From: Myxococcales bacterium | GTDB taxonomy: Bacteria > Myxococcota_A > Polyangia > Polyangiales > Houyiibacteriaceae | DNA: 64,000 bases | NCBI GenBank assembly: GCA_024640845.1 | Contig: JAHEEE010000004.1 | Span: forward strand, 14,567-78,566 | Direction of reading: 5' to 3' | Part shown: piece by piece, positions 23,956 through 54,869 of the stretch | How positions within the stretch are numbered: position 1 is the stretch's first letter | Layout of the letters: the number at the start of each line of letters is the position of its first letter | Notes under the pieces: model-generated | Seen by the model: the letters and a program-made list of their open reading frames with translations, nothing else | Databases searched by the model: none | What the model was told of the DNA's origin: nothing | Translations under genes and position numbers: made by a program

Positions 23956-23971
23956 TGGCACGCACTTTGCT
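23956..23971 (+). promoter_or_regulatory. Sigma-54 (-24/-12) promoter
   Basis: TGGCACGCACTTTGCT is a full match to TGGCACG-N4-TTGCW. It lies 22 nt upstream of the USP ATG at 23993. Confidence 0.7.
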
Positions 23972-24472: not shown

Positions 24473-24529
24473 GCGCCGGGGTCGCTTTGCGTGCTTGACA
24501 CCAAGGGCGCAATTTGTGAGCCACACCTC

Positions 24530-28619: not shown

Positions 28620-28635
28620 AGCAAGATGCGAGCCC
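28620..28635 (-). promoter_or_regulatory. Sigma-54 (-24/-12) promoter candidate
   Basis: The minus strand reads GGGCTCGCATCTTGCT. GG-N10-GC spacing is correct, the -12 TTGCT is perfect, and the -24 reads GGGCTCG versus TGGCACG. Confidence 0.55.
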
Positions 28636-28689
28636 ATACGTGTTTCCAACAATATTGCGATTGACAGGTGTTCTCAGGCCCGCGGAGGG

Positions 28690-28732
28690 TGCAAACGATG
28701 CGTATGGCGTTTTAGGAGACGCATAATATGCG
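28690..28732. promoter_or_regulatory. Tandem UAS candidates (TGCA-N5-TGCG and CGCA-N5-TGCG)
   Basis: TGCAaacgaTGCG (28690-28702) and gaCGCAtaataTGCGcc (28720-28732) have centres 30 bp apart. They lie 62 and 92 bp upstream of the minus-strand -24 element. Confidence 0.55.
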
Positions 28733-28786
28733 CCACCCCTCCTCAACACCAGCCCTGTCGCTGAAGATCGGATAAATAGGAGGACG

Positions 28787-29261: not shown

Positions 29262-29277
29262 TGGCACGGTGCTTGCT
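29262..29277 (+). promoter_or_regulatory. Sigma-54 (-24/-12) promoter
   Basis: TGGCACGGTGCTTGCT is a full consensus match. The ATG of the tandem USP lies only 14 nt after the -12 C. Confidence 0.7.
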
Positions 29278-30184: not shown

Positions 30185-31726
30185 TCAGGTCTCGAAGAGC
30201 GCCTCGAGTCGACGCCGATTCTCCTCGGCCGGCGCCGAGGTGTCGAGACGGACGTGCTCGGATTGCGGTAGCTCGTCGATGGGCTCGAAGCGTGCCTCGA
30301 ACTCGTCGAGCAGGTCGGTTCGCGCGTCGCTTTCATGGGTGCCGCGCGCCTCGCGCTTTGCCAAGCGTTCGAGCAGCAGATCGCGCGGGGCGACACATTC
30401 GACCATCGTGAAAGGCACTCCTTGCCGCGCCGCAAGCGCGCGCGCGGCCGCGCGCGTCGCCGCGCTCCGAAATGACGCATCGATCACCACAGGACGTCCC
30501 GAAGCGAGGACTGTGCTTGCCGCCAACCAGAGCTCGCGGTACACGGCGTCGCTTGCGCTTGGCGAATAAGCTCCGGACCACGCGCCACCCGGCAACGATG
30601 CCTCGGGCGCGACGCCCATGAGATGCTTGCGGGTGCGGTCCGAGCTCACCACTGGCGCGGCGAGCAGCTCCCCGAGGAAACCCGCTGTCCGGCTCTTCCC
30701 GCTCGCGATCATCCCGCCCACGGCGACGAGTCTGGGCGAGAGCAGCGGCGGACGCTCGTACGCCAGCGACAGCATGAAGTAGCGCCGCGCTTCGCGCTTT
30801 GCGCGATCTCGCGTCGCGGCGGACGTCTCCGGATCGGCTGCCAGGAAAGAGGCGATCTTTCCCCGAACGAAAGCGCGGTAGCTCTCGTAGAAGTCGACGA
30901 CCGAGTACAGTCCGTAGTCGTGCGTAGCTCGCGCGTAACGGGCGAGGAATCTCTCCGCGAGGTCGACACGTCCGTGCCATGCAAGATCCATCGACAGGAA
31001 CGCGATGTCGGCGCACACGTCGCCAAATCGAAAACGGTCGTTGAACTCGATGCAATCGATGATGGCGATCGAGCCATCAGGCTCGAAGTAGACGTGCTCT
31101 AGGCGTAGATCCCCGTGCCCGTCGCGCACGCGTTTCGACTTGATCCGTGCGTTGAAACGGGGCGCGTCGGCAAGTATGCCAAGTTGCCAAGCTTCGATTT
31201 CTCGCGCTTGCTCCGGCGTCAGGTACTCGCCAATCGCATCGCGTGTTTGCGCGAAGTTCTCTACTACGTTTTGGCGGATCGTGCTGACCTCGCCGTGCTT
31301 GGCCGTTTCGGCGTCGCACTTTGCGTGCGCGTGAAACTCCGCCACGTGGTCAGCAAGGTCGTCGATGCGCTCGGGCGAGAGGGACCCTTTGGTCAACAGA
31401 GTGTCGCCTCGGTCCTCGTCGGACAAACGGCGCATGTGAACCGCCCAGTCGACGATACGGCCCTCTCCATCGACTGCGTGCATGCCATCTTCATCGACTG
31501 TCACCGGTACTACCCCGAGATACACGTCGGGTGCGAGCCGCCGGTTGAGTCGCACCTCCGACTCGCAGGCTTGTCTTCTCGCGTCGATCGTCGTGAAATC
31601 GAGGAAGCCGAAATTCACCGGCCGCTTGACCTTGAACACCTCGGACTCCGCCAGAAAGACCCACGAGATGTGGGTCTCGATCAGCTCAAAGCCGCTTGCC
31701 TGAAGGTCTGTTTTCACTTGGCTCAT
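30185..31726 (-). CDS. Bifunctional phosphotransferase-fold (APH-like) / P-loop kinase (AAA_33-like) protein
   Basis: The N-terminal half is kinase-like ('HGDLRLEHVYF', 'IIDCIEFND'). The C-terminal half carries the P-loop 'VGGMIASGKS'. This is the same architecture that I recall for mycobacterial Rv2004c-type proteins. Confidence 0.7.
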   Translation of the reverse strand: MSQVKTDLQASGFELIETHISWVFLAESEVFKVKRPVNFGFLDFTTIDARRQACESEVRLNRRLAPDVYLGVVPVTVDEDGMHAVDGEGRIVDWAVHMRRLSDEDRGDTLLTKGSLSPERIDDLADHVAEFHAHAKCDAETAKHGEVSTIRQNVVENFAQTRDAIGEYLTPEQAREIEAWQLGILADAPRFNARIKSKRVRDGHGDLRLEHVYFEPDGSIAIIDCIEFNDRFRFGDVCADIAFLSMDLAWHGRVDLAERFLARYARATHDYGLYSVVDFYESYRAFVRGKIASFLAADPETSAATRDRAKREARRYFMLSLAYERPPLLSPRLVAVGGMIASGKSRTAGFLGELLAAPVVSSDRTRKHLMGVAPEASLPGGAWSGAYSPSASDAVYRELWLAASTVLASGRPVVIDASFRSAATRAAARALAARQGVPFTMVECVAPRDLLLERLAKREARGTHESDARTDLLDEFEARFEPIDELPQSEHVRLDTSAPAEENRRRLEALFET

Positions 31727-31963
31727 GTTTTTGCCGGGTGCTCTGCCAGTATACCAAGTGCAGGTCGCCCGCCCACGTTGCCGGCTCTTCGACTTGCGCT
31801 ACTTAGATCAGGCGATGGCCAAAACATGGATAGTGGTGGCCCATCAGGCGGGCGCGCCCGACGGCGAGATCGATATCGACCGTCCCGGACGATCGTTTCG
31901 AAAGGTCATGGCCGTTTGAGGCGTGCTCTGGCAGCGACCGAAGCAAGCGAAGAGGTAAAAGAG

Positions 31964-32728
31964 ATGGCGAATTTTGAGATGCCCGTGACTGACTACATGA
32001 GCACGCCTGTCGAGACCGTTCGCATCGGCGAGAGCCTGATCACTGCCAACGAGCTGTTTGTCGGACAGGGGGTTTCTGCGTTAGGCGTCGTCGACGACAA
32101 CGGGGCGCTCAAAGGCGTGATCTCCAGAACGGACGTTCTGCACGCGGCGGTCTACGCCCATGGCGAGACCTTTCGCGTGCCCGACCGTCCGGTCGAGGAG
32201 CTGATGCAATCGCCGGCCGTCGCAGTCAGTCCGGATGCTAGCCTCGCGGACGCCGCCAAGTTGATGCTCAAGAATCGCGTGCACCGGGTTTTCGTCACCA
32301 GGGGTGAGCAGCCCGAGGGCGTGCTTTCGACTCGCGACCTCATGCGAGCAGTTCGTGAGAAGCGCCTGAAGGCGCCCATCGCCGAGATCGCGTCTCGCTC
32401 GGTCGTGAAGGTGAAGGCTGAGGACCCGATTGCGCTGGCGGTCGATAGGCTCGACCTCTCGAACAAGCACGGTTTGGTGGTCGTCGAGGGTGGCTTCCCC
32501 GTTGGCGTCTTCGATCAGGCCTGCGCCTTGGAGTCCCGTCGCCTTCCACCGAGCACCGCGGTCGAGCACGCCATGGACGTGCGCATCTTGATCCTGCCGG
32601 GCGAAATCGGAATGGGCCGCGCCGCGGAACAAGCCCTGAGCATGAACGTGCGCCGGATCCTGATCGAAGATGATCTCGGGGTATCGGGAATCGTCGGTGG
32701 TTTGGACTTCGCGAGGGTGATGGGGTGA
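31964..32728 (+). CDS. CBS-domain protein (two CBS pairs)
   Basis: Starts 'MANFEMPVTDYMSTPVETV' and has four CBS-like repeats. The track ORF from 31115 is an antisense-overlapping extension. Confidence 0.8.
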   Translation: MANFEMPVTDYMSTPVETVRIGESLITANELFVGQGVSALGVVDDNGALKGVISRTDVLHAAVYAHGETFRVPDRPVEELMQSPAVAVSPDASLADAAKLMLKNRVHRVFVTRGEQPEGVLSTRDLMRAVREKRLKAPIAEIASRSVVKVKAEDPIALAVDRLDLSNKHGLVVVEGGFPVGVFDQACALESRRLPPSTAVEHAMDVRILILPGEIGMGRAAEQALSMNVRRILIEDDLGVSGIVGGLDFARVMG

Positions 32729-32761
32729 GGGCCCCTTGTCAGCGTCAGCGTCTCACTTACA

Positions 32762-32917
32762 CCACCCACCCACCCCCGCCCGTAATCCTCCCTGCGCGCC
32801 CCAGCGCTTCGCTCGGGGCTTGCCGGCGCGCTTGCGCCGGGCTTCGCCGTTCCGGCTCGCGACCCGGCATGTCTTTGGGGCTGCCAATGCCAGCCTTGAG
32901 TGCCAGTGCCAGTGCCG
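32762..32917 (+). repeat. Intergenic repeat element, copy 2
   Basis: See copy 1. Contains two adjacent short GC hairpins (CCGGCGC-gctt-GCGCCGG at 32823-32840) and a (ccagtg)n tail. It lies between two convergent stops. Confidence 0.75.
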
Positions 32918-32918
32918 C

Positions 32919-35900
32919 CTACAACCACTTCTGAATATGCATTCCGAGCGCCGCTGGCCTCATCGGCGCTCGGTTCCTTGGGAGTACCCGGAAGCGAAGC
33001 TCGTGGCCGCCGCTTGCTCTCACGGCGAAGGCGCCTCGCCAGGTGCTGCGGTTTTCGGCGCCCTCCGATTCAAAGGAGACGACGATCCGGGATGACGGCT
33101 CGTTCTTTTTTCGGCCGAACGAGACGACCGCTTCGACCTCGAGGTCTCGGGCGTCGAGCCCGGGATGGTGGAGCGTCAACTCGGCCGAGACGTGCGTCCC
33201 GACGACGATCTCGTTGCTGCTCAGACCTCCAAAGCGCACGCTCTCCATCGTGATGTCGTTCCAGTGCGTGCGGACTTCTTCGGCAACGTCGGCGAGGGCG
33301 AAGAGTGGACGATAGTTCGACTCGCGAAGCGCGATCGCATCTTGCATGGCGGGCTCATAGAACATGTCCGCATAGTTCGTGAGCATTCGACGGGACGAGA
33401 AACGCGGAATGATGCTCGCCATGCTCGCCTTCATGCGTTCGACCCACGCGACCGGCACGCCCTCCGCATTGCGATCGTGGTACTCGGGCAGAATTTCGCC
33501 CTCGAGCAGCGCCATCGTGATCGCACGGTCGTACGCGCTCGGATCGTGAATCGAAGACGAGGGCAGGTCGATTACCCAGCCATTATCCCCTTGGTAGCCC
33601 TCGAGCCACCAACCGTCATCGACGCTGAGGTTCACACAGCCGTTCATGGCGGCTTTCATACCCGAGGTGCCGCTCGCTTCGAGCGGGCGCGTTGGCGTGT
33701 TTAGCCAGACGTCGCACCCGGCAACCATCCGGCGCGCCTCGTCGATCGAGTAGTCCTCCATGACGATGACGCGGCCCGCAAGCGAGGGGTGCTTCGAAGC
33801 CTGGTAGACTCGCTGGAGGAGCGCCTGGCCATGCCCATCGGCCGGGTGGGCCTTGCCGGCATAGATCATCGTGGCGCCCAGGGTGCCTTCGAGGAGCTTG
33901 GCAAGGCGCTCGGGATCGGCCAGCAACAAGTCGGCGCGCTTGTACGGGGCAAAGCGCCGCGCAAAGCCGATCAGCAGACGGTCCTCGTCGAGGTGGTCGA
34001 GGATGTCCCGCAGCAGCGACAGGTCTTCGCGACGCCTCGTCCAACTCTGGGTCAGGTGCTCTTTCAGCCAGTCGATGTAGTCGGCGCGCAGCTCGCGATG
34101 AATCGACCAAATCTCAGCCGGGTCGTGTTTGCGGAGCCACTTCCACTGGAACCGATCTTCGATCCTGTTGCGCCAATCGTGCCCCATCTCGCGCTCGAAG
34201 AGGCGTTGCCATCGCGGCGCCACCCAGGTCGAGACGTGGACGCCGTTGGTGATGCTGGTGCAAGGGACGTCGTCTGCGTCGTCGAGCTCGGGATAGAACT
34301 GGAGAAACATGTTGCGGGCGACTTCACCGTGCTTCGCGCTCACGCCGTTGATCCGCTCGCAGTTTCTCACGGCGAGCGCGGTCGTGCCGAACTCGTTCGG
34401 AGCGCCGTTTGGTGTATTGCCGATCGCCATCAGGCGCGGCCAATCCATACGAAGCACGTGCTCGAAGCGCGTCAGATACGGGCGCACCATCTCTTCGGGG
34501 AAGTGGTCGTGCCCTGCTGGCACCGGAGTGTGTGTCGTAAAGACAGTCGTGTTGCGGATGTACTCGAATGCTTCTCGTGACCTGAGACCGTGGCGCTGAA
34601 TCAAGTGAGCCGCGCGCGCGATGATCAAGAACGCGCTGTGCCCCTCGTTCATGTGGAACACGTCTGGCTCGATATCGAGCTCGGTCAGCATTTGGTATCC
34701 GCCGAGGCCCAGGATCATCTCTTGACGCAGACGATGCGCAGAGTCGCCGCCGTAAAGACGGTTGGTAATCGCTCGGTCCTCCGGACGGTTCTCGGGCAGG
34801 TTGGTATCGAGCAAGAACAGCGGCACCCGTCCGACCTCGAGTCGCCAAGCGCTCACTTGCACGGGCCCAGTCGGCAGTGGAACCGTCACCCTGAGCGGCG
34901 CGTACTGACCAGCCATCACCTGCTTGAACGGCGGGCTCCCGAAGTCGTTGGTGTCGCTGAGGTGCTCTTGGTGTCCGTCCCGGTCGATCATTTGGCGGAA
35001 GTAGCCATCATGGTAGGCCAGGCCAACGGCGCACAAAGGCAAGTCCAAGTCGCTGGCGGCCTTCAGATGGTCGCCGGCGAGAATGCCGAGGCCGCCCGAA
35101 TAGAGCTTCAGAAACCCAGCGATGCCGAACTCCATGCAGAAGTACGCAATTCTAGGGTCCTTGGCCTGCGTCGCCTCGGACATCTCGCGAGCGGACCGTG
35201 CAACGTCGGCGACGTAGCCTTCGTCCAACGCGAGGTTCATCAAACGCTCGGGCTTGACCTGATCGAGAAGAGCGTGCGGGTTCTCTTCGAGTTTGAACCA
35301 CAGCTCGGGATCGATCTTCTTGAACAAGGAGGCGACTTCGGGGTGCCAGCGCCACCAGAGATTGGCGGCGATGTCTTGAAGCGGTCGCAGCTCGCTCGGG
35401 AGCGCGTTGGTCACCGAGAAGGTGCGAGTGTAGGGGGCGGCCTCCTCGCCCTCCTTGGCGGGAGGGATCACGAATGCACCGAAGACGCCGGAATCTCCCG
35501 AGATCGTTGGCGTCGACGGGACGCTCAGCCGCTCCATGGGCAGTTCCTTGCGTCGGGCTGCGCCGGCCTCCAGCGCGAGCTGGTGTGCCCGCTCATAGTG
35601 CTCCATGAAGTTCGACCAGTCGGTCAGCGCCGCGGTTTCGAGCGAAGCTTGCCCGAGAGCTTCGCGATCCTCGGGTGGCAGATCGATGAACTCGAGCATG
35701 GCCTTCTTGAGGACGTCGCTCACCTCGTCGAAGGACACTCCCTCGCGCTTGAGCACGCGAACACCGGTGCGCTTGCCTTCGCCAAGTGAGGCGGCCCAGC
35801 GCCCGAATCCGGCGCGGTCGGTCGTGATCGCGGGGACCCCGAAGGCCACGGCCTCGAGCGGCGTGTAGCCCCACGGTTCGTAGAAGGAGGGGAATACGCC

Positions 35901-37172
35901 GAGGTCCGCCCCGGGAAGGAGGTCCCAGTACTTCTGGCGAATCAATAGGTCGGTGCCGTCGAGGTAGATCGGGACATGCACGACGTGCACGGGTGCGCCG
36001 TGCGTGTTCTCGACGCCCAACGCGTTGAGCTGATTGGTGATCGGATCGTTCGCCTCGTCGACCAGGTCGTGCGTGCAGCGCAGTGGCGACCCCGCCGCGG
36101 AGCCATGCGCGCGATCCCACAGCGCGCGCTTCGGCTCTGCGTGACCGGCCGGAAGCATGGCATATACGATCACCCGTTTGCCGTCGCGAGACGCAAGCTC
36201 TTCCGGTAGGCCGAAGGCTGCCTCGAAGTAGACGTCCACGCCCTTGTTGACGTACTCGTATCGGCCGGCGAGCGCGAAGATGAGCGTCTTTTCGCGGTCG
36301 TATCGGTCGCCGGTCGTGAGCTCTGCGAGCTTGAAAAGCTCCTCTCTCGCCTGCTGGCGTTGCTCGTGAGCGACTGGTTTGGCGCCAAACCCGTTGGGCA
36401 GAATCACGTCTGGCGTTCGGCCTAACAGATACCGGCATTCGAGCGCGGTGATCTCGCTAACGGTCGTGAAGACGTCTGCCTCGCGCGCCGCGACGGATTC
36501 CATCGAATGCTTCGACGAGACGTTGAGCTCTTTCGCGGCCACTTCCGGGTCGACGTTCGGCAGCGATTGGTAGAAGTTCGGGTCTGCGCGGCGTCCTGCC
36601 AGCGAGCGTCCGAGCATCGTTGCATGGGTCGTGAACACCGTGCCGATCTCAGGCGCCGCCGTCTGGAGGTGTAGAATCGCGGCGGCGGACATCCACTCGT
36701 GGGCCTGCACGAGGGCTTTCTGCCGTCCGGGCAGCAGGAAACGGTCACGAATGTGTTCGATGATCATGCCTGCCGCGTGTGCAAACAAGACCGGGTCGTA
36801 GTAGTCCCAGGCGCCGAACAACGAATCGAGCCCGTACTTCTCCCAGTAGCGGCCGAGAATCTCGTCCTTGCGCGGGTAGAGGCTCGAGTGATTGATCAGC
36901 AGGCACCGAGGCTCCCCTGGCACGAGCCAACGGCCCATCTCGATCCCGATCTCGTGGTCTCGAAGCGATTCGGCAAGCGCGCTATCCCAAATATCGGGGC
37001 GAAACTCGGGGGCGACCCCCTCGGCGCGTGGGACGTCGGGGCCGATCGTGATGTATCGGTCTTCGCCGTGGCGCTGCTGAACCTCCGGGACGCGGCTCGC
37101 CAACACGGTGTGGATACCGCCCACCATGTTGCAGACTTCCCAGGAGATTTCGAAGAACACCGCTCTGCTCAT
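32919..37172 (-). CDS. Fusion protein: GT3 (eukaryote-type) glycogen synthase + GT35 alpha-glucan phosphorylase
   Basis: 1417 aa. The N-terminus 'FFEISWEVCNMVGGIHTVL' resembles the GT3 glycogen synthase N-terminus. The C-terminal half has 'YFCMEFGI', 'GGLGILAGDHLKAASDL' and the PLP-Lys motif 'EASGTSGMKAAMNG' of alpha-glucan phosphorylases. Confidence 0.85.
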   Translation of the reverse strand: MSRAVFFEISWEVCNMVGGIHTVLASRVPEVQQRHGEDRYITIGPDVPRAEGVAPEFRPDIWDSALAESLRDHEIGIEMGRWLVPGEPRCLLINHSSLYPRKDEILGRYWEKYGLDSLFGAWDYYDPVLFAHAAGMIIEHIRDRFLLPGRQKALVQAHEWMSAAAILHLQTAAPEIGTVFTTHATMLGRSLAGRRADPNFYQSLPNVDPEVAAKELNVSSKHSMESVAAREADVFTTVSEITALECRYLLGRTPDVILPNGFGAKPVAHEQRQQAREELFKLAELTTGDRYDREKTLIFALAGRYEYVNKGVDVYFEAAFGLPEELASRDGKRVIVYAMLPAGHAEPKRALWDRAHGSAAGSPLRCTHDLVDEANDPITNQLNALGVENTHGAPVHVVHVPIYLDGTDLLIRQKYWDLLPGADLGVFPSFYEPWGYTPLEAVAFGVPAITTDRAGFGRWAASLGEGKRTGVRVLKREGVSFDEVSDVLKKAMLEFIDLPPEDREALGQASLETAALTDWSNFMEHYERAHQLALEAGAARRKELPMERLSVPSTPTISGDSGVFGAFVIPPAKEGEEAAPYTRTFSVTNALPSELRPLQDIAANLWWRWHPEVASLFKKIDPELWFKLEENPHALLDQVKPERLMNLALDEGYVADVARSAREMSEATQAKDPRIAYFCMEFGIAGFLKLYSGGLGILAGDHLKAASDLDLPLCAVGLAYHDGYFRQMIDRDGHQEHLSDTNDFGSPPFKQVMAGQYAPLRVTVPLPTGPVQVSAWRLEVGRVPLFLLDTNLPENRPEDRAITNRLYGGDSAHRLRQEMILGLGGYQMLTELDIEPDVFHMNEGHSAFLIIARAAHLIQRHGLRSREAFEYIRNTTVFTTHTPVPAGHDHFPEEMVRPYLTRFEHVLRMDWPRLMAIGNTPNGAPNEFGTTALAVRNCERINGVSAKHGEVARNMFLQFYPELDDADDVPCTSITNGVHVSTWVAPRWQRLFEREMGHDWRNRIEDRFQWKWLRKHDPAEIWSIHRELRADYIDWLKEHLTQSWTRRREDLSLLRDILDHLDEDRLLIGFARRFAPYKRADLLLADPERLAKLLEGTLGATMIYAGKAHPADGHGQALLQRVYQASKHPSLAGRVIVMEDYSIDEARRMVAGCDVWLNTPTRPLEASGTSGMKAAMNGCVNLSVDDGWWLEGYQGDNGWVIDLPSSSIHDPSAYDRAITMALLEGEILPEYHDRNAEGVPVAWVERMKASMASIIPRFSSRRMLTNYADMFYEPAMQDAIALRESNYRPLFALADVAEEVRTHWNDITMESVRFGGLSSNEIVVGTHVSAELTLHHPGLDARDLEVEAVVSFGRKKNEPSSRIVVSFESEGAENRSTWRGAFAVRASGGHELRFRVLPRNRAPMRPAALGMHIQKWL

Positions 37173-38371
37173 GGTCGAGTTCGCTTTTCCGCGGGCGCCA
37201 ACACAGAGAGCTTCAAGTCTTTCATGACGTTCATATAGTGGATAAACGCGTCGTAGGGTCCCTCATAAGGGCTGAAGTAGTCGTGCACCTCGCCGTCTGA
37301 GGCCAATTTGGTCGCCATGTAGTAGAAATGGTCCGATGTCTGCAAGCGTCTCCATAGGGCGAGAAGATGAGAATTGTTGCGACGGCGGACCGCCGGGCCG
37401 ATCGAGTAAACTTCGTTCAGCGCCCGCTGCTGCATGGCGTTACCGCGCCAGGCGCTGATGTCGCGAGCCGCATCGGCCCAGGATACCGTTCGATGGAAGG
37501 GGAGCTCGCCTAGGGCGGGGTAGCGGTCGACCACCTGGCTGGGCGTCTGGATGTCCCAATGGGGGTGGGTGAACAGGAGGTCGGGTAGGTGCTCGAGGAA
37601 ATCGAAAATACCCGTCTCCTTCCACTGGTGCTCACCGAACGTTTCGTAGTCCATGAACAGATTGATGACGTCCCCGACACCGCTATGGCCGTGAACCCAG
37701 CCGGCGAACTTCTCAGCCGTCAATGGATACTCCGCCCAGGCTCGGTTCGAGAAACGAAACGCGATGTCGTCGGAGAGCTTGTAGTTCTTGGCGAGAAGGC
37801 GCATTTCGCGCCCGGCGACCTTGTAGACGAAATTGGGGCTTCGCCAATCCAGGATGTCGTCGGCGCCTTCACAGAGCATCGCGTCAAACCCGAGGTCCGC
37901 GATGAATTGCCCGATTTCGTCGTTGTAGATGAGCTCCGTGTTCCGGAAGATGCGGGGGGTTTGGCCGAACTCCTTCTTCATGAGCTCGATCTGCATGTCG
38001 ATCTGGGCTCTAAATTCGTCCTTGTCGTAGAGCGCGGCAAGGCTGTGATAATACGTCTCGGCGACGAACTCGACAGCCCCGGTTTCGGCGAGACGCACGA
38101 AGCTGTCCATCACCTCGGGCGCGTATTTCTTCATCTGCTCGATGGCGACGCCAGTAAGCGCGTACGAGATGCGAAAGCGACCGTCGGTACGCTCGATCAG
38201 ACGCAGCATCGAGTTGTTCGCTGGTAGGTAGCACTTGTCAGCCACCTTCCGAAGGACTTCGGCGTTGAGCTTGTCGTCGAAATACTCGTGGTCGCGACCG
38301 ACCTGGAGCGCACCGTACGGCCGTAGTCGATACGGCTGGTGCACCTCGAAATAAAAACAAACCGACGGCAT
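37169..38371 (-). CDS. Glycoside hydrolase family 57 (alpha-amylase/branching-enzyme family)
   Basis: Starts 'MPSVCFYFEVHQPYRLRPY' (GH57 region I) and contains 'DYETFGEH'. Its stop overlaps the downstream start by 4 nt. Confidence 0.85.
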   Translation of the reverse strand: MPSVCFYFEVHQPYRLRPYGALQVGRDHEYFDDKLNAEVLRKVADKCYLPANNSMLRLIERTDGRFRISYALTGVAIEQMKKYAPEVMDSFVRLAETGAVEFVAETYYHSLAALYDKDEFRAQIDMQIELMKKEFGQTPRIFRNTELIYNDEIGQFIADLGFDAMLCEGADDILDWRSPNFVYKVAGREMRLLAKNYKLSDDIAFRFSNRAWAEYPLTAEKFAGWVHGHSGVGDVINLFMDYETFGEHQWKETGIFDFLEHLPDLLFTHPHWDIQTPSQVVDRYPALGELPFHRTVSWADAARDISAWRGNAMQQRALNEVYSIGPAVRRRNNSHLLALWRRLQTSDHFYYMATKLASDGEVHDYFSPYEGPYDAFIHYMNVMKDLKLSVLAPAEKRTRP

Positions 38372-38379
38372 GATTCACC

Positions 38380-39864
38380 TCAACCCCGCACGACCGATTC
38401 GTATACCGGCACGAGCTTCTCTGCGGCAGCATCCCAGTGGATGTGCCGAATCTCTTCGCGCGCGCGCTCGACGAGTGTGCGCCGGAGCTCGGGCAGCTCC
38501 AATATCGCCACGATCTGGCTCGCCATCTTGTCGACGTCCCAGAAGTCGACCTTGAGCGCGTTTCGCAGCACCTCGGAAACCCCGGACTGCTTCGACACGA
38601 CGACGGGTCGGTCGTAGCTCATCGCCTCGAGCGGCGCGATGCCGAATGGCTCTGACACCGAGGGCATCACGTACACGTCCGCGGTCGAAAAAGCACGCTC
38701 GATCTCGGCGCCCCGCAGCCACCCAGGGAAGCGAAACGACTCGGTGATTCCGAGGTCTTCGACGAGCGCCTCCATTCGCGGAAGCATGTCGCCAGCCCCC
38801 GCCATGATGAACACCGCGTCGGGCACGTGCTGCAACACGCGTGCGGCAGCTTGGACGAAGTACTCGGGCCCCTTCTGAAACGTCACCCGGCCGAGGAACA
38901 GGACGACCGGACCGGTCGTTCTGCGCTGCTCCTTGTAGGCTTGAACCGTCTCGCGGGCGTAGACGCCATTGTGAACGACCGAGATCTTGCGGAGTGGGGT
39001 CCCGTGTACCTGGTTGATCAGGCTACGCGTGTAGTAGCTGACTGCGATGACCCGAGTCGCATGCTCCAGTCCCAAGCGCTCAATCGACACGATGTCACGA
39101 TCGGCGCCGTGACCTGCGCGGTCGTACTCGAGGCTATGCACATGGACCAATAGAGGCGCGCCGATGCGGTGCGCGATCTCGACGCCCGCCGGGAAGGTCA
39201 TCCAGTCGTGCGCATGCACGAGGTCGTACTTGTTGCCCGCGACGCGCCGTGTAGCCGCCATGGCATACCGACCGACCTCGGCGAAGAGGTTCTCGCCGTA
39301 GTGGGCATCGCTCGGCGCTTCATCTGTGAGGGGCAGATCGCCTCCTGGGACGTGCACGTGCTCGAGGCGAGTGATCGCTGCTGGGGGCCCAGGAAGTGGT
39401 CGGTGCTGCCCTCGGGCCATCATTCTTTCGACGGCCGTGGGGGCGAGCTTGTGGGTCGCTATGAGCTCTTGATACGTCGCTTCGTCGAGGTAGGGCTTGA
39501 GCATCGCCGGGACTCGGATCGTCCGCACTCGGGTCGCCGTGCCTTCGCGGGCTTCGGCTTGGGTGGCCTCGACCGCGGCAATGAAGTTTGGATCCGTCGC
39601 GAGCGCCGGCTCGGCGGCGAGCAGCGCAGCGAAGCGCGCGGGGATATGGGCCGGCGTCTCCACCCGAGTCTCGGGTGCCGGGTCCGCCGAGTCCGCTCCG
39701 AGCAGGTGCATGTGAGGCGCGTCTTCCTCGCCGTAGAGCTTGGGCACGAGAAAGTCGATTTCGATGCCGCGCTTCGCCAACGCAGTGGTCAGGCCTTCGC
39801 ATGCCGTGCCAAGACCGCCGCTGATGTGAGGAGGGTATTCCCAGCCGATCATCAAGATCTTCAT
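38380..39864 (-). CDS. Glycosyltransferase (GT4/GT5-like, glycogen-synthase-like) with internal insertion
   Basis: Starts 'MKILMIGWEYPPHISGGLGTAC' and has the C-terminal motif 'EPFGIAPLEAM'. The start overlaps the upstream stop (ATGA). Confidence 0.8.
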   Translation of the reverse strand: MKILMIGWEYPPHISGGLGTACEGLTTALAKRGIEIDFLVPKLYGEEDAPHMHLLGADSADPAPETRVETPAHIPARFAALLAAEPALATDPNFIAAVEATQAEAREGTATRVRTIRVPAMLKPYLDEATYQELIATHKLAPTAVERMMARGQHRPLPGPPAAITRLEHVHVPGGDLPLTDEAPSDAHYGENLFAEVGRYAMAATRRVAGNKYDLVHAHDWMTFPAGVEIAHRIGAPLLVHVHSLEYDRAGHGADRDIVSIERLGLEHATRVIAVSYYTRSLINQVHGTPLRKISVVHNGVYARETVQAYKEQRRTTGPVVLFLGRVTFQKGPEYFVQAAARVLQHVPDAVFIMAGAGDMLPRMEALVEDLGITESFRFPGWLRGAEIERAFSTADVYVMPSVSEPFGIAPLEAMSYDRPVVVSKQSGVSEVLRNALKVDFWDVDKMASQIVAILELPELRRTLVERAREEIRHIHWDAAAEKLVPVYESVVRG

Positions 39865-41861
39865 GGGCCTGCCATCTTGGCGACGCGGAGCACCTCGGAC
39901 ACGCTCCATGCCTGTGCGGGGGTGCCACCCGGACGGTGAGGTGCGTCTCCATCGAACACCTCGCCGATCTGTCCGATGCAGCCTTCGGTCCGGAGATGTG
40001 CGCTGAGCGCCGCCAATGCGGGCATCATTTCTTCTTTCGCAGCCTCAGAACCTTCGACCGCGGCGACCGCGTCGGCGTACAGCCCCAGCAGCCACGGCCA
40101 GACCGTACCCTGATGGTATGCACGGTCCCGCTCGGTTTGCGCGCCTCGGTAAAACGGTCGGTAATCCGGGTCGTCGGGCGAAAGCGTACGCATCCCTACG
40201 GGGGTCAGGAGCTTGTCGCGCACCGCACGCAGCGCCCGTTGCTTTCGCTCCTTTTGAATCGGAACGCCGGGCAACACCAAAGCCCAAAGCTGGTTCGGTC
40301 GCAGCTTGCCGTCGCCATGATGTCCGTTGTGTGTGTCCGTCAAGAAGCCCTGATCATGAAGCCAGAACTTTTCCTCGAAGTGATCGGAGAGTTTCTTCGC
40401 CGTTTCGCTCCACGTTTCGATGAATTCCGGGCGGAGCTTTTTGGCCCAGCGGAGAGCGGAAAGAAGGCCCGAGAGCCACAGCGCGTTGAGGTCGACGGCG
40501 TACCCTTGCCGGGGCGTGACCGCGTGGCCGTCGACGAGCGCATCCATCCAAGTGAGCGCCCACGGCCCCTGCTCGACGAACAAGAACCCCTGTGCGTCGA
40601 TCCGGACGCGTGAATCAGCGCCCGCCGCGATGCTCTCGATCAGATCGAGGCATGCCTCCTGAAGCGGGGCGATTCGCTGGCTTCGTGTACGTTTCGAGAC
40701 CAGCGAAGTCGCGCGAATGAACAGAAGCGACGCGTCGATGGCCTCGCCGTTGGAGGGCACGTCGCCGCTTTGCGGGATGTTGGGGACGAGGCCGTTTTCG
40801 AGACGGCTCGCCAGGGATTCGAGGATATCGAGAGCCTTGCCGACCTCGTCGCGGGCCAAGCAAAGGCCAGGTAGGGCGATCAAGGTGTCGCGCGACCACT
40901 CTCCGAACCAGGGGTAGCCCGCGATGACGCCCGTGCGGCCTCCGTCGAGCTCGACGAGATAAGCATCCGCGGCATCTTCGAGCTCGCGCACGAAGGAACG
41001 ATGAGGTGCGAGGACCGAGCTCAGCACTTGGGGCTCGTGGGAGGTCGCCCGCGTGGTGCCGAGTCGGATGCAAAATGCCCCGTCGTGTTCGAGTCGCAGC
41101 CGGAACTCACCCGGTGTGAACAGGTCCTCGGCGTCGTCGTAGCCGCGCGCGCGCTCCCACTCGTAGTGGACGCCCTCGTACCAATGCCCGTCAGCGTGGA
41201 ATCGACTCGAAGCGCCGTGCATGCTCGCGATCAACGGAGGGACGTTCTTGTACGGATGCATGACGACCCGGAGCGAATCGCCCTGCTCGACCTCGATTTC
41301 GCCGTTCATGAACGAGTTCGCGAAAGTGAGCTTGTGAATCGGGCGACACCGAATCAGTGGGCGGAGCCGAAGGTCGACTGGCTTCTGGAGACCCTCGATC
41401 GAATACCGAATCCAGACCGCATCAGCGTCGTCCTCGAGCCAGAGCTCCCGGGTCACCGTCAGACCGGCGAACTGGTAGGTCCAGCGGGGCAGCGGCTCGA
41501 ATCGGGTGAGGTAGTCGACGCCCGTCGGCTCGACGGTGCTGCCCCAGTCGTAGCTGTGCAACGCGATCTCCTCGTCGGCTCCGACGTCGAACCACTCCTC
41601 GACTTCCGCGACCATGTTGAGTGGCTCACCGACGCCCGGCTCTCGAACTGTCAGAAGGCTGTGATACTTGCGGCGCGGGCAGCGATCGATCGTTCCCATC
41701 GCGAACGAGCCGCCCCGATTCACGCTCAACCACTCCGCGTCCGGGGTCGTCGCTGCGGCGGTGACTTCGGTGGAGTCCTCGGAGCTCCCCGGCTCCCTCG
41801 AAAGAAGACGCAGCCCTGGCGCGCCATCAGAGCGAGCAGGAAACCAACTGGGCAGAATCAC
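39861..41861 (-). CDS. Glycogen debranching enzyme (amylo-alpha-1,6-glucosidase, GDE_N + GDE_C/GH133-like)
   Basis: 666 aa. 'RKYHSLL' marks the N-terminal domain. The C-terminal (alpha/alpha)6 region has 'YPWFGEWSRDT' and 'YHQGTVWPWLLG'. GTG start. Confidence 0.85.
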   Translation of the reverse strand: MILPSWFPARSDGAPGLRLLSREPGSSEDSTEVTAAATTPDAEWLSVNRGGSFAMGTIDRCPRRKYHSLLTVREPGVGEPLNMVAEVEEWFDVGADEEIALHSYDWGSTVEPTGVDYLTRFEPLPRWTYQFAGLTVTRELWLEDDADAVWIRYSIEGLQKPVDLRLRPLIRCRPIHKLTFANSFMNGEIEVEQGDSLRVVMHPYKNVPPLIASMHGASSRFHADGHWYEGVHYEWERARGYDDAEDLFTPGEFRLRLEHDGAFCIRLGTTRATSHEPQVLSSVLAPHRSFVRELEDAADAYLVELDGGRTGVIAGYPWFGEWSRDTLIALPGLCLARDEVGKALDILESLASRLENGLVPNIPQSGDVPSNGEAIDASLLFIRATSLVSKRTRSQRIAPLQEACLDLIESIAAGADSRVRIDAQGFLFVEQGPWALTWMDALVDGHAVTPRQGYAVDLNALWLSGLLSALRWAKKLRPEFIETWSETAKKLSDHFEEKFWLHDQGFLTDTHNGHHGDGKLRPNQLWALVLPGVPIQKERKQRALRAVRDKLLTPVGMRTLSPDDPDYRPFYRGAQTERDRAYHQGTVWPWLLGLYADAVAAVEGSEAAKEEMMPALAALSAHLRTEGCIGQIGEVFDGDAPHRPGGTPAQAWSVSEVLRVAKMAGP

Positions 41862-41921
41862 GACACATACCCCCTGAGAAAAAGGTCCGGCCGGAAGAGC
41901 CGGATCAGAAGCATCCTCCTA

Positions 41922-41937
41922 AGCAGGAGGCGTGCCA
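41922..41937 (-). promoter_or_regulatory. Sigma-54 (-24/-12) promoter for the glycogen operon
   Basis: The minus strand reads TGGCACGCCTCCTGCT (perfect -24, -12 CTGCT). It lies about 60 nt upstream of the GTG at 41861. Confidence 0.65.
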
Positions 41938-41999
41938 AAGCCTGGCCTGAAGACCCGGGCCGTTCCGTCACAAACAGACAACATTAACGGTCCCTACGG

Positions 42000-42043
42000 C
42001 GCAATGAATGCGGGTTCAAGCAGTCATCGCGCAACCGGTGCGC
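42000..42043. promoter_or_regulatory. Tandem UAS candidates (CGCA-N5-TGCG x2)
   Basis: CGCAatgaaTGCG (42000-42012) and GCGCAaccggTGCGC (42029-42043) have centres 30 bp apart. They lie 70 and 100 bp upstream of the -24 GG. Confidence 0.6.
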
Positions 42044-42047
42044 CTTT

Positions 42048-43316
42048 CTAGCCACGCGCCTCGTACCACGCTTTCTCCAAGGCCTCCTGGTCATTGGGGT
42101 GCGCGATGGAAATCAGCAATTGCGCTCGCTCGTTGAGTGTCTTGCCGTAAAGGTCCACCGCGCCGTTCTCGGTGATGATGAATTGGACGTGGGCCCGCGT
42201 CGTGACGACCCCGGCACCCGCTCGGAGCGTTGGCACGATTCGGGGGATTCCTTTCGCGGTACGGCTGGTCAGCGCGATGATCGGCTTTCCACCTTCGGAG
42301 GTCATCGCGCCGCGGATGAAATCCATTTGACCGCCGACACCGGAGATCACCCGGTGTCCGATCGAATCGGCACACACCTGACCCGTGAGATCGATCTCTA
42401 TGGCAGAGTTGATCGCTGTCACCTTGGGGTTCCGGTTGATGACGTTGACCCGGTTCACGTAACCGATGTCGTATTGCGCGACCGACGGGTTGTCGTCGAT
42501 GAAGTCGTAGAGGCGCCTCGTGCCGACGACGAAGCCGGATATCGTGCGACCTGGATGGACCTTCTTGAGACTATTGTCGACAGCGCCGCACTCGAGGAGC
42601 GGCAGAAGCCCGTCCGACCACATTTCCGTATGGACGCCGAGATGACGATGGCTCTTCAGCGCCGCCAGCACGGCGTCCGGCACTGCGCCGATCCCCATTT
42701 GGAGAGTCGCCCCGTCCTCGATGAGCTGGGCTGCGTGGTGCCCGATGGCCTTCTCCTCCTCAGTCGGCGGAGCGGGAGATGATTCGGGCAGAGGCTCGTC
42801 GTGCTCGATCAGCCAATCGAGCTCGTCGATGTGAACGAAGCCGTCGCCGTGCACACGGGGCATGTGCGCGTTCACCTGTGCGATGACCACCTTCGCCGAG
42901 TCGACTGCGGCTCGCGCGACGTCGACCGAAACGCCGAGGCTGCAGTAGCCGCGCTTGTCCGGGGGAGAGACCTGCACCAACGCGATATCGAGCGCGCGCC
43001 TCCCGGAGCGGAAAAGAGCCGGGATCTCCGACAGGAAGCAGGGGAGGTAATCGATCCGGTCGCCGTCGAGTTGCCGACGCATGTTGTCCCCCACGAACAG
43101 GTTCGCGACCCGAAACGAGCGCTCGTACTCGGGTCTTGCGTACTCCGCGTCGCCCGACGTGTGGAGGTGGATCAACTCGACGTTTCGGAGCCTGCTTGCT
43201 TCGCCGAGCAGCGCCTGGATCAACGCCAGAGGCGTGGCGGCGCCGCCGTGAACGAACACGCGCTGATTCGAGTTGATGTGATTGACCGCTTCGTCTGCGG
43301 TGCAGAGCTTCGACAT
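42048..43316 (-). CDS. Acetyl-CoA hydrolase/transferase family protein (4-hydroxybutyrate CoA-transferase-like)
   Basis: 422 aa. 'VFVHGGAATP', 'TEMWSDG' and 'GVGGQMDF' are typical of this family. Confidence 0.85.
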   Translation of the reverse strand: MSKLCTADEAVNHINSNQRVFVHGGAATPLALIQALLGEASRLRNVELIHLHTSGDAEYARPEYERSFRVANLFVGDNMRRQLDGDRIDYLPCFLSEIPALFRSGRRALDIALVQVSPPDKRGYCSLGVSVDVARAAVDSAKVVIAQVNAHMPRVHGDGFVHIDELDWLIEHDEPLPESSPAPPTEEEKAIGHHAAQLIEDGATLQMGIGAVPDAVLAALKSHRHLGVHTEMWSDGLLPLLECGAVDNSLKKVHPGRTISGFVVGTRRLYDFIDDNPSVAQYDIGYVNRVNVINRNPKVTAINSAIEIDLTGQVCADSIGHRVISGVGGQMDFIRGAMTSEGGKPIIALTSRTAKGIPRIVPTLRAGAGVVTTRAHVQFIITENGAVDLYGKTLNERAQLLISIAHPNDQEALEKAWYEARG

Positions 43317-45429: not shown

Positions 45430-45891
45430 CTAGCCGCCGAAGGTATCATTCGGCATGATGTGATCGTGGAGGAGCTTCTCGTTCACGTATTCCCGCTCCT
45501 CCTCTTCGATGTCCTTGCGCAACATCTGCGCCAGCTTCACCACGCTGGCTTTCAAATCGTCCGATGAGCTCGCCTCGCGAATCTGATCGACCAAGCGGTC
45601 TAGCTCCTGGCGTTGATCGGCGTGCTCTGCGTGAAGGTGGCGGACCCGTTCTGGACCGAAGCCGTCCGCCTCGTTGATGGCGGGTACCATGTGGGCTTCC
45701 TCGAAGTTCATGTGCAGCTCCAAAATCCCGCGGAGCGCATAGGCGGCCCGCTTGACCTGGTCGGCGCCCACCGTGCCATCGCCTAGGTGCGTCACACCGG
45801 TCTCGAGCTCGGACAGCATCTGTTCGATCTCACGGTGCTGACTGAGTACCTTCCGCCGCACTTCGGAGGGCATCAACGGTTCGTCGCTCAT
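45430..45891 (-). CDS. Hemerythrin-like (HHE cation-binding) domain protein
   Basis: His/Glu spacing 'HREIEQ...HMNFEEAHMVP...HAEHADQRQE' is present. GGGAGGA lies 6 nt upstream of the ATG at 45891. The track start at 46014 is an extension. Confidence 0.6.
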   Translation of the reverse strand: MSDEPLMPSEVRRKVLSQHREIEQMLSELETGVTHLGDGTVGADQVKRAAYALRGILELHMNFEEAHMVPAINEADGFGPERVRHLHAEHADQRQELDRLVDQIREASSSDDLKASVVKLAQMLRKDIEEEEREYVNEKLLHDHIMPNDTFGG

Positions 45892-45928: not shown

Positions 45929-45944
45929 TGCAAAGAATGCGCCA
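45929..45944 (-). promoter_or_regulatory. Sigma-54 (-24/-12) promoter for the hemerythrin operon
   Basis: The minus strand reads TGGCGCATTCTTTGCA, with correct spacing and a perfect -12 TTGCA. Confidence 0.65.
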
Positions 45945-45975
45945 AACGTTTAGCAGGATTTCGCTTCGCAGGACA

Positions 45976-46017
45976 CGCAAGTTCTGCGCCGGACTGGAAT
46001 GTTTCGCAGAACATGCG
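45976..46017. promoter_or_regulatory. Tandem UAS candidates between divergent promoters
   Basis: caCGCAagttcTGCGcc (45976-45988) and CGCAgaacaTGCGtg (46005-46017) have centres 29 bp apart. Together they form a larger inverted repeat, ACACGCAAGTTCTGCG-N16-CGCAGAACATGCGTGT. Confidence 0.6.
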
Positions 46018-46059
46018 TGTTTCTCGCTATGCTTTGCAGCCAATACCTGCAACCCAGGT

Positions 46060-46075
46060 TGGCACGAAGCTTGAT
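46060..46075 (+). promoter_or_regulatory. Sigma-54-like promoter candidate (non-canonical -12)
   Basis: TGGCACGAAGCTTGAT has a perfect -24 TGGCACG, but the -12 reads TTGA instead of TTGC. It lies 17 nt upstream of the USP ATG at 46091. Confidence 0.4.
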
Positions 46076-48994: not shown

Positions 48995-49172
48995 GGGGTA
49001 CCTCCAACTCCTCTTCGAGGGGAATGCGTGCGTTGTGATCCGCCTCGGCTGCGCTCATCCGCATCACGCGAACGACTACGACTAGAAACACGGTGAAAAA
49101 CAGAAGCAGCGCGATGACTGGGTAGAGCAACGCGGGGCTCTGCGCGAAGAACTCTGAAGCAAACCGGCTCAT
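48987..49172 (-). CDS. ccoQ: CcoQ/FixQ-like small membrane subunit
   Basis: 61 aa with a single TM segment ('[20 protein letters not shown]'). It lies between ccoNO and ccoP, with ATGA overlap to the ccoNO stop. Confidence 0.55.
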
Positions 49173-54853: not shown

Positions 54854-54869
54854 CGCAACCCATATGCCA
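54854..54869 (-). promoter_or_regulatory. Sigma-54 (-24/-12) promoter for the cco operon
   Basis: The minus strand reads TGGCATATGGGTTGCG (TGGCAT-N5-TTGC). It lies 38 nt upstream of the ATG at 54816. Confidence 0.65.

Follow-up and report, generated by a model that had tools for sequence, protein, structure and literature searches.

An NmpR-type sigma-54 promoter predicted upstream of a four-gene glycogen operon in a Myxococcales bacterium

The stretch of DNA analyzed in this study (64,000 nt of contig JAHEEE010000004.1 from a Myxococcales bacterium of the order Polyangiales, referred to below as the window) carries a four-gene glycogen operon on its minus strand. The genes encode a debranching enzyme (GDE) of glycoside hydrolase family 133 (GH133), a family 4 glycosyltransferase (GT4), a GH57 enzyme and a fusion of a GT3 glycogen synthase with a GT35 phosphorylase (GT3::GT35). 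The operon would be transcribed from a sigma-54 promoter of its own, opened by an NtrC-like activator of the NmpR type that binds as oligomers at two upstream boxes (S1 and S2). An activator of this type is encoded in the same window and is most likely the binder of S1 and S2, and the heme (protoglobin) kinase encoded next to it would set its phosphorylation state. Glycogen turnover would thus be one output of an oxygen-responsive regulon, together with a wax ester synthase/diacylglycerol acyltransferase (WS/DGAT) gene, a universal stress protein (USP)-kinase operon, the hemerythrin-USP-coenzyme A (CoA)-transferase genes, a divergent set of USP genes and a P-type ATPase/cbb3 oxidase cluster. 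We consider this the best overall explanation of the sequence and a probable one, and the dependence of the promoter on sigma-54 and an NmpR-type activator quite likely. We infer the pairing of the activator with its sites, a single mRNA for all four genes and induction by low oxygen; towards the last of these we lean with less assurance, by analogy with Myxococcus xanthus. The positions of all features are listed in Table 1.

Table 1. Position of the glycogen operon, its predicted control elements, the candidate regulators and the other box-bearing promoters in the window.
Feature	Position	Strand	Remarks
Gene 1, GH133 debrancher (amylo-1,6-glucosidase)	39861-41861	-	666 aa, GTG start at 41861
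Gene 2, GT4 glycosyltransferase	38380-39864 (or 39909)	-	long insertion in N-terminal half
Gene 3, GH57 enzyme	37169-38371	-	400 aa
Gene 4, GT3 synthase::GT35 phosphorylase fusion	32919-37172	-	1417 aa
Sigma-54-like -24/-12 element TGGCACGCCTCCTGCT	41922-41937	-	60 nt before GTG at 41861
NmpR box S1, distal	42029-42043	-	plus strand GCGCAACCGGTGCGC; perfect GCGCA-N5-TGCGC match
NmpR box S2, proximal	41999-42013	-	plus strand GCGCAATGAATGCGG; one deviation from consensus
Conserved element ATGTTG-N5-TTGTGACGGAA	41963-41984	-	22 nt, between S2 and -24 element
Hairpin in 5' leader	41886-41904	-	T-run after hairpin in window
Shine-Dalgarno-like AGGGGG	41870-41875	-	8 nt before GTG; AAGGGG conserved in alignments A1 and A2
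NmpR-like sigma-54 activator (REC + AAA+ + HTH_8)	25716-27164	-	downstream of WS/DGAT gene
NmpU-like globin-coupled kinase (Protoglobin + HisKA + HATPase_c)	24491-25708	+	likely start M14 at 24530
Box pair, WS/DGAT-activator operon	28689-28733 (boxes 28689, 28719)	-	sigma-54-like site 28620-28635; divergent CBS gene
Box, USP-kinase operon	23868		perfect sigma-54 site 23956-23971
Shared box pair	45975-46018 (boxes 45975, 46004)		flanked by divergent sigma-54 elements, whole element 45929-46075
Sigma-54 element, hemerythrin-USP-ORF-CoA-transferase genes	45929-45944	-	
Sigma-54 element, USP-USP genes	46060-46075	+	
Single box, membrane-protein/P-type ATPase/cbb3 cluster	54900		sigma-54-like site 54854-54869
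Box pair inside 3' end of ccoI (P-type ATPase)	51842-51886	-	one perfect, one single-deviation, 15 nt apart; upstream of ccoS-ccoNO

Promoter and upstream boxes of the glycogen operon

The stop codon of the preceding CoA-transferase gene (42048-42050) and the GTG start codon of gene 1 are separated by an intergenic gap of 186 nt. Within this gap, we found a sigma-54-like -24/-12 element (TGGCACGCCTCCTGCT) with one mismatch from TGGCAC-N5-TTGCW (15 of the 16 specified positions match) and with GG-N10-GC intact. Two CGCA-N5-TGCG palindromes (42000-42012 and 42030-42042) are located 69 and 99 nt upstream of the -24/-12 element, the distal one beginning 4 nt past the CoA-transferase stop codon. 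They form the cores of the 15-nt boxes S2 and S1, which read CCGCATTCATTGCGCC and GGCGCACCGGTTGCGCG, respectively, on the minus strand. S1 shows no deviation from GCGCA-N5-TGCGC and S2 a single one, both with a perfect GCA-N5-TGC core, and the pair thus conforms to the box rule of NmpR promoters. The gap between S1 and S2 is 15 nt, and S2 lies 61 nt from the -24 element. An earlier note, made from the letters of this stretch alone, had pointed to a sigma-54-like element about 60 nt before the first gene and to two CGCA-N5-TGCG palindromes at 42000-42043, next to the CoA-transferase stop codon; its coordinates and distances are correct and the positions can be read directly.

Because the boxes are identical to the NmpR consensus, the activator family can be named. 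NmpR is an NtrC-like activator of M. xanthus that is induced by hypoxia and works through sigma-54 (PMC11841059). Its binding consensus, GCGCA-N5-TGCGC, was defined by McAllister et al. 2025 with electrophoretic mobility shift assays and lacZ reporters (PMC11841059). In the mobility shift assays NmpR binds promoters with two sites, which are separated by a gap of 14-15 nt in five of the seven bound promoters, and in vivo neither the proximal site S2 nor the sigma-54 site can be dispensed with (PMC11841059). The glycogen promoter resembles these promoters in the box itself, in the gap between its two sites, in the distance of the proximal site from the -24/-12 element (less than 100 bp) and in the intergenic location of the whole arrangement.

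A chance origin of the boxes and of the sigma-54-like sites is excluded, since the window contains four tandem box pairs at 28-31 nt where 0.015 are expected (at most one was seen in any of 200 random sequences matched in dinucleotide composition) and eight sites with at most one mismatch from TGGCAC-N5-TTGCW where 1.26 are expected (none of 100 shuffles reaches eight). Exact CGCA-N5-TGCG palindromes are likewise in excess, with 13 observed versus 3.99 expected (0/100 shuffles). The general sigma-54 consensus was used for the window, as a promoter model derived from the orthologous glycogen promoters was too specific and only retrieved the promoter itself.

Relatives of the operon were collected by scanning one genome per species with gene 1. 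The resulting 57 loci stem nearly all from metagenome-assembled genomes of uncultured Polyangiales, Sandaracinaceae-like or ‘Myxococcales’ bacteria, the best being 90% identical. The gene order hemerythrin-USP-ORF-CoA-transferase-GDE-GT4-GH57-fusion (ORF, open reading frame) is kept in about 45 of them, and the four-gene core alone is also present in one Bdellovibrionota genome. In a footprinting alignment of 40 orthologous upstream regions (A1), the half-sites of the boxes and the TGGCA and GCT of the sigma-54 element are invariant or at least 90% conserved, whereas the spacers of 4-5 nt within the boxes vary freely. We then applied strict architecture rules modelled on M. xanthus (at most two deviations per box, a perfect GCA-N5-TGC core and boxes 28-32 nt apart from start to start). 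The full architecture, comprising both boxes, a gap of 14-16 nt and a sigma-54 element, is found in 35 of the 52 loci with enough upstream sequence; the sigma-54 element lies 59-64 nt past S2 in 34 of these and 82 nt past it in the remaining one. Several further loci combine one good box with a weaker one. Protein-binding sites under selection, with a fixed helical phase to the promoter, would be expected to show such a pattern. Together with the identity to the validated NmpR box, it supports the proposal of the earlier note that a sigma-54 promoter with tandem enhancer sites precedes the operon. None of the six loci with a GDE that is at most 45% identical shows the full architecture. Locus L040 (GDE 59% identical) and loci L052-L057 have the same gene order, or its first genes, and neither NmpR boxes nor a sigma-54 element upstream. 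These boxless loci serve as natural controls and show the regulatory link to be confined to a single lineage.

The palindromes and the TGGCAC motif might be kept for another reason, namely as an RNA structure or as a 3' end signal of the upstream gene, given that the boxes abut the CoA-transferase stop codon and that short palindromes can form hairpins. We regard this as highly improbable. The stems are only 5 bp long and are not followed by a T-run, the half-sites are conserved and the spacers change without any compensatory logic, and no Rfam family is matched at threshold. Moreover, box pairs with a periodicity of 29-30 nt recur three more times in the window (twice in intergenic regions and once inside ccoI), and boxes are also found upstream of activator genes in unrelated metagenomes.

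The region between the boxes and the start codon contains two further elements. The first, located between S2 and the -24 element, is strongly conserved in A1, unique in the window and present in related loci only at the orthologous position. It is possibly the site of a second, operon-specific regulatory input or an architectural site. We should note that it resembles a direct repeat of TTGT(T)GACG. A site for integration host factor was considered and rejected, as the element fits WATCAANNNNTTR on neither strand and none of the other box-bearing promoters contains it. The second element is a hairpin in the 5' leader with compensatory changes across about 35 loci, in which 81% of the cells are paired and six of the seven pairs have changed on both sides. 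This covariation exceeds all slid and almost all shuffled controls, for a 7-bp hairpin that was specified by hand. Only in the window and its two closest relatives does the T-run make the hairpin look like a terminator. A consensus structure of the leader was not predicted by RNAalifold from its own alignment, and the fold of the single leader sequence is not unusual (z = -1.3). A riboswitch or small RNA in the leader was rejected, with no Rfam family at threshold (best 20 bits versus a gathering score of 49.5).

The candidate activator, its kinase and the proposed oxygen response

Both candidate regulators are encoded in the window by convergent genes that are 7 nt apart. The kinase combines a Protoglobin domain (103 bits) with HisKA and HATPase_c, the domain set by which NmpU is recognized, and its motif IGRMHVKVGL contains the proximal histidine at position 96 if translation starts from M14, which is the same position as in NmpU. 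For the activator, a metagenome scan with the window protein yielded 80 loci. An exact box lies within about 400 nt upstream in 14 of the 33 loci whose activator is at least 53% identical, versus 1 of 39 more distant paralogues, and a protoglobin gene is present in the locus in 15 of 38 versus 0 of 42 cases. The group with at least 53% identity also shares the helix-turn-helix (HTH) signature GST..AA..LGIS.R(K/T)IQY(R/K) in place of the usual R.TL..K motifs of the paralogues. Based on this association of its orthogroup with boxes, protoglobin kinases and an HTH signature, we treat the activator as a member of the NmpR family and a candidate orthologue of NmpR of M. xanthus (MXAN_4240), and it is most likely the protein that binds the boxes. 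The gene for sigma-54 itself, rpoN, is not located in the 64-kb window.

The NmpR regulon of M. xanthus comprises 23 genes and includes the nmpR operon with a CBS-domain gene at its head, the nmpU-T-S operon, a USP gene, a P-type ATPase gene followed by those of the cbb3 oxidase, hemN-hemerythrin and pilR, and the nmpR operon shows a 6.5-fold, NmpR-dependent induction under hypoxia (PMC11841059). NmpRSTU was also described as an oxygen-utilisation system by Bretl et al. 2018 (PMC6211767). The box-preceded genes of the window mirror this list, with a CBS protein, USPs, hemerythrin and a P-type ATPase plus cbb3 oxidase common to both, which supports a regulon of the NmpR type. As in M. xanthus, the activator and kinase operons themselves bear boxes, which suggests autoregulation; in the window this concerns the box pair before the WS/DGAT-activator operon. 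These recurring boxes, together with the activator and the protoglobin kinase, lend support to the earlier proposal that one oxygen-responsive activator is shared by the glycogen, USP, WS/DGAT and cbb3 genes. The regulons differ in that the window adds the glycogen operon, WS/DGAT and CoA-transferase, none of which belongs to the 23-gene regulon, and in that no link to pilR is visible in the window.

Several points weigh against the regulation proposed here. The -12 element reads CTGCT instead of TTGCT. There is no intrinsic terminator to be found between the CoA-transferase stop codon and the boxes, so read-through from the upstream promoter, which likewise bears boxes, may add transcription. 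Myxobacteria encode dozens of paralogous NtrC-like activators (PMC11841059). Neither NmpS nor NmpT, the latter a protein with two receiver domains, was detected in the 64-kb window: matches of a tblastn search with the NmpS-like protein of locus L070 are confined to the protoglobin kinase (kinase core) and the activator (receiver), and the activator's is the only receiver domain in the window. A direct link from kinase to activator with the oxygen-on polarity of the globin-coupled kinase AfGcHK would result in induction by oxygen. Lastly, enzymes for both the synthesis and the degradation of glycogen are encoded, and transcription alone thus leaves it unspecified whether glycogen rises or falls.

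Regarding the first of the alternatives that these points raise, the genes might be transcribed mainly by read-through from the hemerythrin-USP-CoA-transferase operon, with the elements in the gap being minor or idle. This operon has the same orientation, a sigma-54 element and a box pair of its own, and the upstream synteny is kept in most loci. However, strong purifying selection acts on the -24/-12 element, on both boxes and on their spacing, whereas the rest of the spacer varies, and loci L022 and L025 have no CoA-transferase gene directly upstream, yet keep the full architecture. Such read-through as the main source of transcription is therefore unlikely. It can also coexist with a separate promoter, and both would be controlled by one and the same activator. 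A second alternative keeps the sigma-54 promoter but assigns the boxes to another activator paralogue encoded elsewhere, since many NtrC-like activators are present in myxobacteria and the 64-kb window is only a part of the genome. We rate this as very unlikely: the boxes precede the own operon of the window activator as well as the adjacent kinase operon, and its orthogroup is the only one enriched for upstream boxes and protoglobin neighbours and with a distinct recognition-helix signature.

The direction of the response is less certain than the dependence on an NmpR-type activator. In M. xanthus, oxygen-activated NmpU silences NmpS, which phosphorylates NmpR only once oxygen falls, and it is this signal-inverting relay of NmpS and NmpT that the window lacks. 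No NmpS- or NmpT-like genes were found in the closest metagenomic relatives either. Full-length matches to the NmpS-like protein (a hybrid kinase with REC-PAS-HisKA-HATPase organization) are located beside the protoglobin kinase in loci L067, L070, L079 and L099, as in M. xanthus. The kinase-activator pair of the window, with its tail-to-tail genes, may represent a shortened circuit. AfGcHK from Anaeromyxobacter sp. Fw109-5 (PMC8697598) is similar to the window kinase in being a soluble Protoglobin + HisKA + HATPase_c protein encoded near an NmpR-type system, but it belongs to a full NmpRSTU-like set, whereas the window kinase is part of a regulon island with identifiable targets.

If the kinase phosphorylated the activator directly, the regulon, including the glycogen operon, would be switched on with oxygen present. 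The convergent neighbouring genes, the lack of an NmpS-like kinase or an extra receiver in the window and its closest relatives, the presence of NmpS-like genes next to the homologues in the four loci mentioned above and the activity of AfGcHK and NmpU in the heme- or oxygen-bound state all agree with this possibility. Nevertheless, it is the less probable direction, although by no means a negligible one: the cbb3 high-affinity oxidase, hemerythrin, USPs and storage-lipid synthase are typical of low-oxygen responses and match the hypoxia-induced regulon of M. xanthus. In addition, the genes for NmpS and NmpT could lie outside the window, and an oxygenated kinase could act as a phosphatase. The cbb3 oxidase, hemerythrin, USPs and storage enzymes thus argue for the low-oxygen response that we favour. 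The earlier note had suggested that carbon storage would be part of a hypoxia programme; membership of the operon in the regulon is supported, whereas the hypoxic direction is drawn from M. xanthus and the gene content, with NmpS and NmpT not encoded in the window.

DosR/DevR of Mycobacterium tuberculosis controls a low-oxygen programme with USPs, a CBS-domain protein, a tgs1-type triacylglycerol/wax-ester synthase and heme sensor kinases, as encountered in the window. DosR is, however, a LuxR-type regulator that works with sigma-70 and GAF-heme sensors, whereas the window combines an NtrC-type activator with sigma-54 and a protoglobin. Glycogen operons are not known among the canonical targets of DosR. 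The DosR/DevR dormancy regulon has been cited as a parallel to the NmpR regulon (PMC11841059). As a tentative idea, the regulon in this Polyangiales clade may be a DosR-like dormancy or storage programme, operated by a two-protein kinase-NmpR circuit without NmpS and NmpT and with a second input through the 22-nt element at 41963-41984. Such a programme may join glycogen turnover, wax-ester/triacylglycerol synthesis and the CoA-transferase to the USPs, CBS protein, hemerythrin and cbb3 oxidase. A two-protein circuit without an inverter would need a kinase with reversed oxygen logic, or else an oxygen-on regulon.

The NmpR/sigma-54 promoter class, the GT3::GT35 fusion enzyme and the GH133-GT4-GH57 cluster are already known. 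What appears to be new is the inclusion of a glycogen operon in an NmpR regulon, as a lineage-specific extension of the known regulon. In the literature searched, we found no link of NmpR, or of sigma-54 in myxobacteria, to glycogen or storage-lipid genes; work on globin-coupled kinases and sigma-54 likewise yielded nothing on such a link, and the only papers found on NmpR are the two on M. xanthus cited above. The analysis extends the experimentally defined NmpR box and sigma-54 code of M. xanthus to a large group of uncultured soil and sediment Polyangiales, in which the membership of the regulon differs: a complete operon for glycogen synthesis and degradation and a storage-lipid synthase would be wired to a heme oxygen sensor. 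This provides a testable hypothesis of how supposedly aerobic predators handle carbon under fluctuating oxygen and a natural comparison for the growth of regulons, and it points to a simplified kinase-activator circuit with a signal polarity of interest. The parts of the operon are commonplace, its wiring is of moderate interest, and nothing established is overturned.

Enzymes encoded by the operon and comparable gene clusters

The four genes are tightly packed. Genes 1 and 2 as well as genes 3 and 4 share an ATGA stop/start overlap (39864-39861 and 37172-37169, respectively), and genes 2 and 3 are separated by 8 nt (38372-38379), all of which can be read directly. These junctions, the gene order kept in about 45 loci and the lack of any predicted sigma-70-like promoter in 32400-42400 make a single transcript for the four genes plausible. 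The earlier note had described four minus-strand genes with 4-nt overlaps or an 8-nt gap, implying one transcript, and a GDE, GT4-like, GH57 and GT3::GT35 content without the classical glgC/glgA/glgB/glgX set. The reading frames and junctions are as described, and the gene content agrees with the domain assignment below.

Domains were assigned with Pfam and NCBIfam. The product of gene 1 contains GDE_N and GDE_C (312 and 172 bits) and resembles a debranching enzyme of the archaeal type. Gene 2 encodes a GT4-type transferase (Glycos_transf_1/Glyco_transf_4), whose nearest named family is ‘glgA_Coryne’, with a score far under the family cut-off. Gene 3 gives a Glyco_hydro_57 match of 270 bits, and its translation contains the five conserved regions of GH57 with both catalytic residues, including the motifs EVHQP, RNTELI, FMDYETFGEH and LQTSDHFYY, which were placed by eye without a curated alignment. 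According to the rules of Martinovicova and Janecek, alpha-amylases of GH57 have Glu or Gln at logo position 1, Arg or Glu at 12, the nucleophile Glu15, the proton donor Asp20 and Tyr-Tyr at 35-36, whereas branching enzymes have an aromatic residue at position 12 and Phe at 35 (PMC6037648). The gene 3 product has Glu at position 1, Arg at 12 and Tyr-Tyr at 35-36, which is the fingerprint of the alpha-amylase type rather than that of a branching enzyme. Despite the strong Pfam match, a sequence search returned no solved GH57 structure related to gene 3 at E < 0.01, and this alpha-amylase-type GH57 clade, which is linked to GT4 and GH133 genes, is without a closely related solved structure.

The large gene 4 product starts with a Glycogen_syn domain (PF05693, GT3; 287 bits, residues 8-342 and beyond), followed by DUF3417 and an alpha-glucan phosphorylase (TIGR02094; 718 bits, residues 675-1274). 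The catalytic motifs of both parts are intact, i.e., E-X7-E of the synthase (YEPWGYTPLE) and the pyridoxal phosphate-lysine motif of the phosphorylase (EASGTSGMK). The fusion has more than 100 full-length homologues in Polyangiales, Bdellovibrionota, Oligoflexia and Planctomycetes. Fusions of about 1400 aa carry the name ‘phosphorylase/glycogen(starch) synthase’ at the Joint Genome Institute; they have the same length and the same domains (PF05693, DUF3417 and PF00343/TIGR02094), and gene 4 is structurally undistinctive. We found no biochemical study of the GT3::GT35 fusion in the literature searched. GT3 synthases are known in archaea, the Planctomycetes-Verrucomicrobia-Chlamydiae group and Bacteroidetes.

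Judged from these domains, the operon would encode one, possibly two, chain-building and three chain-degrading activities. None of the four products is recognizable as a branching enzyme, and none matches glgC, GT5-type glgA or GH13-type glgB/glgX at curated thresholds. A glycogen cluster with GH133, GT4 and GH57 genes is known from archaea, e.g., Picrophilus torridus, where the role of the GT4 protein has been called unclear (review PMC11046441). The window operon is similar to the Picrophilus torridus-type cluster in the adjacency of GH133 debrancher, GT4 and GH57 amylase and in the lack of glgC, glgA (GT5), glgB and glgX from the cluster. It differs in its bacterial host (Myxococcota), in the attached GT3::GT35 gene and in the putative sigma-54/NmpR control. 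The gene content to which the earlier note had applied the label ‘unconventional’ was therefore correct, but the label itself is overstated, since both the GH133-GT4-GH57 cluster and the GT3::GT35 fusion had already been described or annotated.

Further box-bearing promoters and single boxes in the window

The other boxes of the window are associated with the operons listed in the lower part of Table 1. The box pairs of the hemerythrin region and of the cbb3 region are conserved in related loci. In the hemerythrin region, one pair appears to be shared by two divergent promoters, with the nearer box being only about 30-45 nt away from each of them. The minus-strand promoter of this region (TGGCGCATTCTTTGCA) itself differs at only two positions from the 15-nt NmpR box and at one from the CGCA-N5-TGCG core. 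For the box pair inside ccoI, no convincing sigma-54 element is located downstream, either in the window or in seven related loci; a sigma-54-like site on the minus strand (52017-52032) lies about 130 nt upstream of this pair.

Single intragenic boxes were also observed, namely a perfect one in the hemerythrin gene (45517-45531) and one with a single deviation in the GT3::GT35 gene (34725-34739). Two more single boxes with one deviation (at 29422 and 29523) lie inside the tandem-USP gene. In M. xanthus, most intragenic predictions of NmpR boxes are unbound. The tandem-USP gene (ATG at 29291) is preceded at 14 nt by a perfect sigma-54 consensus on the plus strand (TGGCACGGTGCTTGCT, 29262-29277). 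No box pair is near this site, the closest being located about 540 nt upstream, beyond a CBS gene.

A second WS/DGAT gene (57600-59690, minus strand) encodes a 696-aa protein extended at its N-terminus by about 220 aa. As NmpR boxes are missing upstream of this gene, the regulon appears to include only one of the two storage-lipid synthases. Two oppositely oriented ORFs, encoding an AAA_33 kinase-like protein (30185-31726, minus strand) and a CBS-domain protein (31115-32728, plus strand), overlap by about 600 nt. In related loci, NmpR boxes and a sigma-54-like site are present in the divergent AAA_33/CBS region; the window shows no evident counterpart of either. In the cbb3 cluster, ccoI overlaps at its end with a small ccoS-like ORF, and CcoN and CcoO are fused in a single ORF of 780 aa (COX1 + FixO; 49169-51511, minus strand), followed by CcoP and CcoG.

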